Assembly: GCF_003334765.1 (NCBI RefSeq)
Contig: NZ_QOWT01000008.1
DNA length: 64,000 bases
From: Escherichia coli
GTDB lineage: Bacteria; Pseudomonadota; Gammaproteobacteria; Enterobacterales; Enterobacteriaceae
Strand: one strand, 5' to 3'
Position numbers and translations under genes: made by a program. This document shows positions 1,735 to 38,164 of the stretch, one piece after another (position 1 is the first letter of the stretch; every line of letters begins with the position of its first letter). The notes under the pieces are model-generated. The model searched no databases. It saw only the letters and a program-made list of their open reading frames with translations, and was not told the DNA's origin.

Positions 1735-1816
1735 TTATTCAGTCGATAGTAACCCGCCCTTCGGGGATAGCAAGCATTTTTTGCAAAAAGGGGTAGATGC
1801 AATCGGTTACGCTCTG

Positions 1817-13063: not shown

Positions 13064-13701
13064 TTACTCGTCGGCAGCGTAGCCCTGCGGCGGCAGACGT
13101 TGACCATCCAGCCACGCGGCGTTTTCGTGCATTTTCAGACGACCATCGGCAAACCAGCTAATCACCAGTGGATAAATGGCGTGTTCCTGGGTTTGCACGC
13201 GGGCGGTGATGTCATCTTCCGAATCACCAGCAAATACCGGGACTTTCGCCTGTAAAATAACCGGGCCACCGTCCAGTTCATCGGTGACGAAATGCACCGA
13301 TGTACCGTGCTCTTCATCGCCATTTTCCAGCGCCTGACGATGGGTGTGTAATCCGGGATATTTCGGCAGCAGAGAAGGGTGAATGTTCAGCAAACGCCCG
13401 GCATAGTGGGAGACAAACGCCGGGCTGAGAATGCGCATAAAACCAGCCAGCACGACCACATCGGGTGCGTACATGTCGATTTCATGAATCAACTCCCGGT
13501 CATAGGCTTCACGACTGTCAAACGCGCTGGCGATGAGCGTATGCGTTGCAATACCCGCCTGGCGGGCGCGTTCAAGGCCGAACGCGTCGGCCTTATTGCT
13601 GAAAACTGCCCGTACGGTGCCTTTAATTTTGTTGGTTTTACAGGCGTCAATAATTGCCTGTAAATTACTTCCGTTGCCGGAAATAAGCACCACAATATTC
13701 A

Positions 13702-13702
<1 letters not shown>
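13064..13702 (-). CDS. purN: Phosphoribosylglycinamide formyltransferase 1
   Basis: 212-aa ORF MNIVVLISGNGSNLQAIIDA...; start overlaps the purM stop (TAATG). Confidence 0.95.
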
Positions 13703-14757
<1,055 letters not shown>

Positions 14758-14802
14758 TTACTTGCGGTAGAAAAATAAAATTCGGCGCAATTCTAACAGG
14801 GA

Positions 14803-14818
14803 AAGCAAACGTTTGCGA
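14803..14818. promoter_or_regulatory. PurR operator (pur box) of purMN
   Basis: AAGCAAACGTTTGCGA with perfect palindromic core GCAAACGTTTGC, about 65-80 bp upstream of the purM start. Confidence 0.7.
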
Positions 14819-15015
14819 GACTGCTTTACACAACCTTTTTGCACGTCTTTTCCCCAGGCGCGCGGCGAAAGAAGACTTGTGCCAGGGTAAAGGTTAGTTT
14901 TCGGATGGAATAATCTTCTTTCATAACCATCTGAATATAAAATAACTTTATCTCAAACCGTTATCATTTTGACTAAAGTCAACGAAAAGAATATTGCCGC
15001 CTTGAAGAAAGGAGG

Positions 15016-15037
15016 TATAATCCGTCGATTTTTTTTG
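15016..15037 (+). promoter_or_regulatory. upp promoter -10 (TATAAT) and initially transcribed GATTTTTTTTG tract
   Basis: TATAAT at 15016-15021 followed by CCGTCG and an 8-T run; matches the upp UTP-sensitive start-site selection / reiterative transcription arrangement. Confidence 0.65.
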
Positions 15038-15063
15038 TGGCTGCCCCTCAAAGGAGAAAGAGT

Positions 15064-15690
15064 ATGAAGATCGTGGAAGTCAAACACCCACTCGTCAAAC
15101 ACAAGCTGGGACTGATGCGTGAGCAAGATATCAGCACCAAGCGCTTTCGCGAACTCGCTTCCGAAGTGGGTAGCCTGCTGACTTACGAAGCGACCGCCGA
15201 CCTCGAAACGGAAAAAGTAACTATCGAAGGCTGGAACGGCCCGGTAGAAATCGACCAGATCAAAGGTAAGAAAATTACCGTTGTGCCAATTCTGCGTGCG
15301 GGTCTTGGTATGATGGACGGTGTGCTGGAAAACGTTCCGAGCGCGCGCATCAGCGTTGTCGGTATGTACCGTAATGAAGAAACGCTGGAGCCGGTACCGT
15401 ACTTCCAGAAACTGGTTTCTAACATCGATGAGCGTATGGCGCTGATCGTTGACCCAATGCTGGCAACCGGTGGTTCCGTTATCGCGACCATCGACCTGCT
15501 GAAAAAAGCGGGCTGCAGCAGCATCAAAGTTCTGGTGCTGGTAGCTGCGCCAGAAGGTATCGCTGCGCTGGAAAAAGCGCACCCGGACGTCGAACTGTAT
15601 ACCGCATCGATTGATCAGGGACTGAACGAGCACGGATACATTATTCCGGGCCTCGGCGATGCCGGTGACAAAATCTTTGGTACGAAATAA
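15064..15690 (+). CDS. upp: Uracil phosphoribosyltransferase
   Basis: ORF track 15037..15690 begins at an in-frame GTG; true start [16 protein letters not shown] (208 aa) has SD AAAGGAGAAAG upstream. Confidence 0.95.
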
Positions 15691-15775: not shown

Positions 15776-17065
15776 ATGACGCGCCGTGCTATCGGGGTGA
15801 GTGAAAGACCGCCACTTTTACAGACAATCCCGCTTAGTTTGCAACATTTGTTCGCCATGTTTGGTGCAACCGTCCTGGTGCCCGTCTTATTTCATATTAA
15901 CCCGGCGACTGTACTGTTATTTAACGGTATTGGAACGCTGCTGTATCTCTTCATCTGTAAAGGGAAAATTCCGGCTTATCTTGGTTCCAGCTTTGCCTTT
16001 ATTTCACCGGTATTGTTACTGTTGCCGTTAGGGTATGAAGTCGCGCTGGGCGGCTTTATTATGTGCGGCGTGCTGTTCTGCCTGGTTTCTTTTATCGTGA
16101 AGAAAGCGGGGACCGGCTGGCTGGACGTGCTGTTTCCACCTGCGGCAATGGGCGCAATCGTTGCCGTCATCGGTCTGGAGCTGGCGGGCGTAGCTGCCGG
16201 TATGGCGGGTTTACTCCCGGCTGAAGGGCAAACGCCAGACTCCAAAACCATCATCATCTCTATTACCACCCTGGCGGTCACGGTTTTAGGTTCCGTGCTG
16301 TTTCGTGGTTTCCTGGCAATTATCCCGATTTTAATTGGCGTGCTGGTGGGGTACGCGCTCTCTTTCGCAATGGGAATTGTCGATACCACGCCGATTATTA
16401 ATGCTCACTGGTTTGCGCTGCCAACCCTCTATACGCCGCGCTTCGAGTGGTTTGCCATTCTGACTATTCTGCCAGCGGCGTTAGTGGTTATTGCCGAACA
16501 CGTAGGGCACCTGGTAGTAACGGCTAATATCGTCAAAAAAGATCTGCTGCGCGATCCAGGTCTGCACCGTTCGATGTTTGCTAATGGCTTGTCGACCGTG
16601 ATTTCCGGCTTCTTTGGCTCTACGCCAAATACTACTTACGGAGAAAACATTGGCGTGATGGCGATCACCCGTGTTTACAGTACCTGGGTTATCGGCGGGG
16701 CGGCGATTTTCGCTATCCTGCTTTCCTGCGTCGGTAAACTGGCTGCCGCTATCCAGATGATCCCATTGCCGGTGATGGGCGGCGTTTCGCTGCTGCTTTA
16801 TGGTGTCATCGGTGCTTCCGGTATTCGTGTTTTGATCGAATCGAAAGTGGATTACAACAAAGCACAGAACCTGATCCTGACTTCCGTGATTTTGATCATC
16901 GGCGTCAGTGGCGCGAAGGTAAACATCGGCGCGGCGGAGTTAAAAGGTATGGCGCTGGCGACCATCGTCGGTATCGGCTTAAGTTTGATCTTCAAACTGA
17001 TCAGTGTGCTGCGCCCTGAAGAAGTGGTGCTGGACGCAGAAGACGCGGATATAACAGACAAATAA
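15776..17065 (+). CDS. uraA: Uracil:H+ symporter
   Basis: ORF track 15734..17065; start reset to [21 protein letters not shown] (429 aa); polytopic NCS2-family membrane protein. Confidence 0.93.
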
Positions 17066-20054: not shown

Positions 20055-21116
20055 ATGCTCGAAATGTTGATGCAATGGTATCGCCGCCGTTTTAGCGACC
20101 CGGAAGCGATTGCCTTGCTGGTTATTTTAGTTGCCGGATTTGGCATTATCTTTTTCTTTAGTGGCCTGCTTGCTCCGTTGCTGGTGGCTATTGTGCTGGC
20201 CTATTTGCTGGAATGGCCAACCGTGCGTCTGCAATCTATTGGCTGCTCCCGCCGCTGGGCGACGTCGATTGTATTGGTGGTTTTCGTCGGTATATTGCTA
20301 CTGATGGCGTTCGTGGTACTGCCTATCGCCTGGCAACAGGGCATCTACTTAATCCGCGATATGCCGGGGATGCTCAATAAGCTTTCTGACTTTGCCGCCA
20401 CGTTGCCGCGCCGCTATCCGGCGTTAATGGACGCGGGCATTATTGATGCAATGGCCGAAAATATGCGCAGTCGGATGCTGACCATGGGCGATTCGGTGGT
20501 GAAAATTTCCCTCGCCTCGCTGGTCGGTTTGCTGACCATAGCCGTCTATCTGGTGCTGGTGCCATTGATGGTCTTCTTCCTGCTGAAAGACAAAGAGCAG
20601 ATGCTGAACGCCGTTCGCCGGGTGCTGCCGCGTAACCGTGGGCTGGCAGGACAGGTGTGGAAGGAGATGAATCAACAAATCACCAACTATATCCGCGGCA
20701 AAGTGCTGGAGATGATCGTGGTGGGGATCGCCACCTGGCTGGGGTTCTTGCTCTTCGGGCTGAACTATTCGCTGCTGCTGGCAGTGCTGGTCGGCTTCTC
20801 GGTTCTTATTCCGTACATTGGCGCATTTGTGGTGACCATTCCGGTGGTTGGCGTGGCGCTATTCCAGTTTGGCGCAGGTACTGAATTCTGGAGCTGCTTC
20901 GCGGTGTATCTGATTATTCAGGCGCTGGACGGCAACCTGTTAGTGCCGGTGTTGTTCTCCGAAGCGGTTAACCTGCATCCGCTGGTGATTATTTTATCGG
21001 TGGTGATCTTCGGTGGTTTGTGGGGATTCTGGGGCGTATTCTTCGCCATTCCGTTGGCGACGCTGATCAAAGCCGTGATTCATGCCTGGCCCGATGGGCA
21101 AATCGCGCAAGAATAA
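20055..21116 (+). CDS. perM: AI-2E/PerM family membrane transporter (YfgO)
   Basis: 353-aa polytopic membrane ORF MLEMLMQWYRRRFSDPEAIALLVIL.... Confidence 0.88.
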   Translation: MLEMLMQWYRRRFSDPEAIALLVILVAGFGIIFFFSGLLAPLLVAIVLAYLLEWPTVRLQSIGCSRRWATSIVLVVFVGILLLMAFVVLPIAWQQGIYLIRDMPGMLNKLSDFAATLPRRYPALMDAGIIDAMAENMRSRMLTMGDSVVKISLASLVGLLTIAVYLVLVPLMVFFLLKDKEQMLNAVRRVLPRNRGLAGQVWKEMNQQITNYIRGKVLEMIVVGIATWLGFLLFGLNYSLLLAVLVGFSVLIPYIGAFVVTIPVVGVALFQFGAGTEFWSCFAVYLIIQALDGNLLVPVLFSEAVNLHPLVIILSVVIFGGLWGFWGVFFAIPLATLIKAVIHAWPDGQIAQE

Positions 21117-38110: not shown

Positions 38111-38140
38111 CAGGGCTGGAATCATCCGGCCCTTTTTTCT
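38111..38140 (+). terminator. Rho-independent terminator after bamC
   Basis: CAGGGCTGGA-atcat-CCGGCCC followed by TTTTTT. Confidence 0.65.
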
Positions 38141-38148
38141 GATATGAT

Positions 38149-38164
38149 ACGCAAACGTGTGCGT
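38149..38164. promoter_or_regulatory. PurR operator upstream of purC
   Basis: ACGCAAACGTGTGCGT, near-perfect pur box directly downstream of a TATGAT -10-like hexamer; about 150 nt upstream of the purC ATG. Confidence 0.6.

Follow-up and report, generated by a model that had tools for sequence, protein, structure and literature searches.

The palindrome in the purM–upp spacer of Escherichia coli is the characterised purMN operator of the purine repressor PurR

The spacer between the divergently transcribed purM and upp genes of E. coli contains a short palindrome, which raises the question of whether this element is a binding site for PurR, the LacI/GalR-family purine repressor, and, if so, which of the two flanking transcription units it controls. 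We addressed this question in a window of 64 kb, by which we mean the whole stretch of E. coli DNA analysed here; the features discussed below are collected in Table 1. Gene calls placed the element inside a 324-nt divergent purM–upp spacer, 64 nt 5' of the purM start codon, in agreement with the location proposed by a first-pass annotation of this DNA. purM is the first gene of the regulated operon and purN the second, with the purN start overlapping the purM stop by one base, and their products catalyse steps 5 and 3, respectively, of the de novo route to IMP. The assignments of purM, purN and upp agree with the RefSeq annotation of K-12.

The plus strand of the element reads AAGCAAACGTTTGCGA, the reverse complement of the TCGCAAACGTTTGCTT found on the purM-sense strand. 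The first-pass annotation had described a perfect palindromic core, and the sequence was found exactly as written there: the inner 12 bp (GCAAACGTTTGC) form an exact palindrome, flanked by two positions on each side that are not self-complementary. This core occurs as a single exact copy across the window, compared with an expectation of approximately 0.004 for uniform sequence of 64 kb. Read on the purM-sense strand, the 16-bp element agrees with the consensus ACGNAAACGTTTGCNT at 15 of its 16 positions. A permissive 12-mer pattern search of the window, allowing up to two mismatches, was uninformative (2 hits compared with 5.7 expected), and since it could not separate signal from chance we relied on a 16-mer search together with a weight matrix. 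This matrix was symmetrised and trained on 24 PurR ChIP motifs located outside the window (Cho et al. 2011, PMC3159470). The element scored 18.39 bits, with p = 3.2e-7 per position. The training sites have a median score of 17.9, which the element (18.4 bits) exceeds. Chance would yield 0.02 hits this strong per 64 kb and 1e-4 in the 324-nt spacer. For comparison, the maxima obtained from mononucleotide shuffles had a mean of 13.6 and reached at most 20.1.

Table 1. Genes, promoter elements and PurR motifs discussed in the text, in window coordinates.
Feature	Position	Strand	Sequence	Details
PurR operator (PUR box) of the purMN promoter	14803..14818	-	TCGCAAACGTTTGCTT	sequence given for the purM-sense strand
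Exact 12-bp palindromic core	14805..14816	.	GCAAACGTTTGC	central CpG at 14810/14811
Predicted extended -10 element of the purMN promoter	14790..14798	-	TGTTAGAAT	4 nt downstream of the operator
Predicted purMN transcription start	14782..14783	-		7-8 nt past the -10 hexamer, from conserved -10 geometry
purM (phosphoribosylformylglycinamidine cyclo-ligase)	13702..14739	-		GTG start at 14739; TIGR00878, 515 bits (cut-off 236); RefSeq b2499
purN (phosphoribosylglycinamide formyltransferase)	13064..13702	-		TIGR00639, 281 bits (cut-off 150); RefSeq b2500
upp promoter	14994-15021		TTGCCG-16-TATAAT	10/12 matches (sigma-70 scan)
upp	15064..15690	+		above the NCBIfam equivalog cut-off
uraA	15776..17065	+		above the NCBIfam equivalog cut-off
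uraA-internal matrix hit	16152-16167		GCGCAATCGTTGCCGT	14.4 bits; 0.3 expected per 64 kb; third-best in the window
PurR operator upstream of purC	38149..38164	+	ACGCAAACGTGTGCGT	19.7 bits; 0.007 expected per 64 kb; ChIP motif (PMC3159470)
Weaker PurR operator, guaBA promoter	1797..1812	+	ATGCAATCGGTTACGC	13.5 bits; 0.6 expected per 64 kb; ChIP motif (PMC3159470)
Weak PurR ChIP motif, yfgO/yfgC (yfgO/perM)	20100..20115	+	CCGGAAGCGATTGCCT	13.0 bits; 0.7 expected per 64 kb

Comparison with published data identified the element. The purM-purN motif listed in Table 1 of the ChIP-chip study by Cho et al. 2011 is TCGCAAACGTTTGCTT, at MG1655 2,619,140-2,619,155 (PMC3159470). The window runs in reverse orientation relative to the E. 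coli K-12 MG1655 genome (NC_000913.3) and matched it with 0 mismatches and no gaps over the 3,836 nt compared; published coordinates convert to ours as window position = 14818 + 2,619,140 - genome position. With this conversion, the purC, guaB-guaA and yfgO/yfgC ChIP motifs all fell exactly at the window positions predicted from their MG1655 coordinates. The identity between our element and the published purMN motif is thus supported both by identical flanks and by the same distances to the purC, guaBA and yfgO motifs. A PurR ChIP experiment, one of the checks that the first-pass annotation had called for, was already available, and it established that PurR occupies this site in vivo and does so more strongly with adenine: the purM-purN peak has a log2 enrichment of 2.08 with adenine and 0.98 without, and is one of 13 regions bound by PurR in both conditions (PMC3159470). 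In the same study, purMN appears both as a PurR target characterised earlier and as one of the IMP-pathway operons that PurR-hypoxanthine represses (PMC3159470).

The palindrome is thus the purMN operator for PurR that was already known from E. coli K-12, and nothing about it is new. Its characterisation dates from around 1990 and its genome-wide re-mapping from 2011. He et al. 1990 (J Bacteriol 172:4555) reportedly described purR-dependent regulation of pur-lacZ fusions, purMN included, and are said to have found that the purified repressor specifically bound a 16-bp operator overlapping each promoter. A report by Meng et al. 1990 is likewise said, by its title, to concern purR-dependent repression of purMN. 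Many solved structures of PurR exist, 1PNR included; this entry is reported to show PurR with hypoxanthine on the purF operator, where Leu54 kinks the central CpG step.

The element and its repressor are near-universal in the species. A 60-bp query centred on the operator matched 5,425 of 5,426 complete E. coli genomes, in 5,309 cases with 100% identity, and a 401-bp query covering the spacer matched the same number of genomes (5,425/5,426), some at 100% identity. The purR gene (b1658, annotated in K-12) lies outside the 64-kb window, and its DNA was found in 5,425 of the 5,426 genomes, which places the cognate repressor in the organism at the level of the species.

Could a different member of the LacI/GalR family, such as GalR, GalS, CytR or RbsR, be the main protein that binds this palindrome? 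The AANCGNTT core is common to operators of the LacI family, and GalR binds sites that overlap PurR sites at the purR gene (PMC5110547). However, purM is not among the 15 regions found by GalR ChIP-chip, and the outer positions of our element (TCGC...GCTT) do not fit the GTG...CAC ends of the GalR sites tabulated in that study (PMC5110547), whereas occupancy of the purMN site by PurR is directly documented (PMC3159470). We consider it extremely improbable that another family member is the principal regulator here. A GalR/GalS operator was rejected as a candidate, as the element has no GTGNAANCGNTTNCAC-type ends and the 15 regions occupied by GalR in vivo do not include it.

We examined conservation in 120 purM loci from species-representative genomes of widely differing bacteria. 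The loci were retrieved through a degenerate DNA pattern encoding the N-terminal peptide of PurM, without use of the operator sequence. In each locus, the 400 nt upstream of the PurM peptide were scanned with the PurR matrix. In fifteen loci there was a box (12.9-23.2 bits) whose offset from the Tyr codon was -95 to -116; in E. coli this offset is -103. These were all ten Enterobacterales sampled (Escherichia albertii, Citrobacter, three Enterobacter, Superficieibacter, Rahnella, Acerihabitans, Providencia and Photorhabdus), all four Vibrio and one Aeromonas (Aeromonas caviae). Among the remaining 105 loci, 4 were too short upstream to score, and the 101 that were scored had no such box and peaked at 11.4 bits, at a position of -321. 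Represented among the 101 are Pseudomonas, Shewanella, Pseudoalteromonas, Colwellia, Halomonas, Orbaceae (order Orbales) and beta-, delta- and epsilon-proteobacteria. In the sampled loci the box was therefore kept in related lineages and absent outside them, a distribution similar to the range that has been described for the regulon of LacI-type PurR. MAFFT alignment of the DNA upstream of purM revealed two conserved blocks only, cTCGCAAACGTTTGC (the box) and CTGtTAGAATtGC, and DNA further upstream was not alignable. The position of the box upstream of purM is thus fixed across three orders even though the flanking DNA cannot be aligned.

This fixed position bears on the possibility that the palindrome arose by chance, or forms a DNA or RNA hairpin, and has no regulatory role. 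Short palindromes do arise by chance, and the weaker match inside uraA, at 14.4 bits, resembles such a hit. For the purMN element, by contrast, the low numbers of exact cores and of equally strong matrix hits expected in 64 kb, the constancy of position across three orders and the published ChIP data together effectively refute a chance origin, to which we assign a negligible probability. A search of 14600-15200 on either strand gave no Rfam match at E <= 1.

The second conserved block led us to the purMN promoter, whose -10 element was identified through cross-genus conservation. The motif TGnTAGAAT, an extended -10 element, was found in 16 of 16 aligned loci, E. coli included. Because this conserved element sits 4 nt downstream of the operator, the operator would lie at about -35 to -20 of the promoter; by the predicted start it spans about -35/-36 to -20/-21, with its centre at -27.5 or -28.5. 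This centre agrees with the '28 nucleotides' given in an earlier study (PMC3266220), provided that the figure is, as we read it, the distance from centre to start. In general, PurR sites are located between the -35 and -10 elements and affect the initiation step of transcription (PMC3159470). The PUR box is therefore located at a promoter, with a start that is predicted from the geometry of the -10 element. The purMN -35 is weak (TCGCAA versus TTGACA), and the promoter relies on its extended -10. On the purM strand a simple sigma-70 scan gave no promoter, and on the other strand it recovered the upp promoter alone; the purMN promoter was missed because the scan requires a good -35 and that of purMN is poor. 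Candidate -10 elements nearer to purM, such as TATTTT at 14777-14772, were dropped, as they are not conserved in the alignment. Since the operator is upstream of the predicted transcription start, it would be absent from purM mRNA. A structured RNA in the purM leader or intergenic region was rejected on this ground and for want of an Rfam match in 14600-15200.

Directly after the purMN -10 we also observed a GC-rich discriminator, (T/A)GCGCCG, at 14783-14789 (minus strand), which is kept in most Enterobacterales and Vibrio. Promoters under negative control by ppGpp/DksA typically have discriminators of this GC-rich kind.

The distance between the box and the TG of the extended -10 differs between lineages. 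This gap was 4 nt in 11 of 11 Enterobacterales (E. coli among them), 15 nt in 4 of 4 Vibrio (loci L028, L048, L101 and L108) and 20 nt in Aeromonas (L105), which shifts the centre of the box relative to the predicted start from about -28 in Enterobacterales to about -39 in Vibrio and about -44 in Aeromonas. The lineage-specific spacing (4, 15 and 20 nt) is the sole item in our analysis that is mildly new. It is conceivable, though unlikely, that PurR uses different RNA polymerase contacts in different lineages, occluding the spacer and -35 in some and an upstream region, that of the -35 or the UP element, in others. If true, such lineage-specific contacts could yield different strengths of repression.

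We regard it as almost certain that the element is the operator of E. coli purMN for PurR, and our analysis turned up no evidence against this reading. The proposal of the first-pass annotation, that PurR represses purMN from this site, is supported by identity with the ChIP-chip motif (PMC3159470), by the matrix score and by conservation. Under this model, when purines are plentiful, hypoxanthine or guanine would bind the PurR dimer, which would in turn bind the 16-bp near-palindrome. PurR on the operator would then compete with RNA polymerase, so that transcripts of purM and purN are initiated less often. Under purine scarcity, PurR would be without corepressor, its occupancy would drop and purMN would be expressed. 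Because the operator would occupy the -35 region and the spacer, the most likely mechanism is that corepressor-loaded PurR blocks RNA polymerase at the purMN promoter by steric occlusion. A study of a multicopy clone of the purM–upp intergenic region also speaks for a PurR operator: deletion of AAACGTTTGCTT weakened a phenotype of the clone for which the authors invoked titration of PurR (PMC3266220). It is conceivable, though again unlikely, that the strong purMN site acts as a physiologically relevant sink for PurR, as this titration phenotype would suggest.

Considering that the operator lies in a divergent spacer, we asked whether the same PurR site might also control the upp-uraA operon, or act in both directions. 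The divergent layout of upp and purMN was kept in 16 of the 16 loci examined, and some pyrimidine genes are known to be regulated by PurR (PMC3159470). However, the upp promoter is approximately 175 bp away from the operator, and in Cho et al. the peak is attributed to purM-purN alone, with 0 occurrences of upp in the text (PMC3159470). Moreover, in E. cloacae and Superficieibacter, an insertion of approximately 1.7-3.3 kb separates upp from the box, and yet the 4-nt gap to the purM -10 is retained. Control of upp-uraA from this site is therefore very improbable, and we retain purMN as the target of the operator. The additional DNA between upp and purMN amounts to 1.7 kb in the Enterobacter cloacae locus (L086) and 3.3 kb in that of Superficieibacter electus (L072).

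The upp side of the spacer has features of its own. Window 14994-15037 holds the upp promoter and, in the initially transcribed region after it, GATTTTTTTTG. The T-run of this region has been described in connection with UTP-sensitive start-site choice and reiterative transcription at upp. On the far side of the upp promoter, upstream of it at 14969-14982, there is a near-perfect FNR-type palindrome, TTGACTAAAGTCAA; it has been reported as a site for FNR, with its centre 61.5 nt upstream of the upp start (PMC3266220).

The first-pass annotation had counted three pur-regulon operators in the window, adding a purC site and a weaker guaB site to that of purMN. Both of these sites are real, and the genes downstream were confirmed as purC and guaB-guaA, but the count was one short: four PurR-bound motifs have been reported in this stretch, the fourth being that of yfgO/yfgC (PMC3159470). 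The purC operator follows the bamC terminator and lies approximately 175 nt before the purC ATG. A GC-rich hairpin with a T-run, AGGGCTGGAATCATCCGGCCCTTTTTT, is found at 38113-38140, after bamC and directly upstream of the purC box, and is probably the bamC terminator. The guaB operator ends 3 nt before a TATAAT at 1816-1821, and the guaB-guaA motif was bound by PurR only with adenine (log2 0.84; PMC3159470). The mechanical open reading frame call starts guaB at the ATG at 1797, inside the PurR box; the ATG at 1867 gives the familiar N terminus MLRIAKEAL. The yfgO/yfgC motif is weak and was likewise bound only with adenine (PMC3159470); its 13.0 bits do not exceed what chance would give in 64 kb. 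It is located 45 nt inside an open reading frame at 20055-21116 (within its first 61 nt), although all binding regions are called intergenic in that study (PMC3159470); this open reading frame had no NCBIfam hit at E <= 1e-30.

Judged from sequence alone, significance in the window is limited to the purC and purMN sites. The guaBA and yfgO motifs are not significant by this measure, because the maxima of mononucleotide shuffles average 13.6 bits; their assignment draws on promoter context and the ChIP data. The uraA-internal hit has no counterpart in the published ChIP regions and probably arose by chance.

The purMN operator teaches nothing new about purine regulation. Its value is as a control, in that a textbook operator was recognised from raw sequence and was cleanly recovered by a small PurR matrix together with a cross-genus scan anchored on the gene.

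Compared with known systems, the element does not differ from the purMN operator of E. coli K-12 (MG1655): the 16-mer and its flanks are identical, and we consider the two to be the same element. Like the purF, purT, purL, purHD, purEK and purC operators, it is a near-palindrome of 16 bp centred on CG and of the form ACGNAAACGTTTGCNT, it overlaps the promoter of a gene of the IMP pathway, and its occupancy is enhanced by the corepressor. Within the window, the purMN site has the most symmetrical core (12/12) and non-consensus outer bases, namely T at position 1 on one strand and A at positions 2 and 16 on the other, whereas the purC site has better outer bases and one mismatch in its core. The roadblock-type sites in purB and purR use the same repressor and motif, but lie downstream of the promoter and block elongation (PMC3159470); unlike these, the purMN site is upstream of its predicted start and overlaps the region to which polymerase binds. 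Finally, the PurR of Bacillus subtilis and Lactococcus has the same name and acts on the same pathway, but is an unrelated PRT-fold protein with PRPP as its effector and a different DNA element, the PurBox (PMC10912719), and has no bearing on this site.
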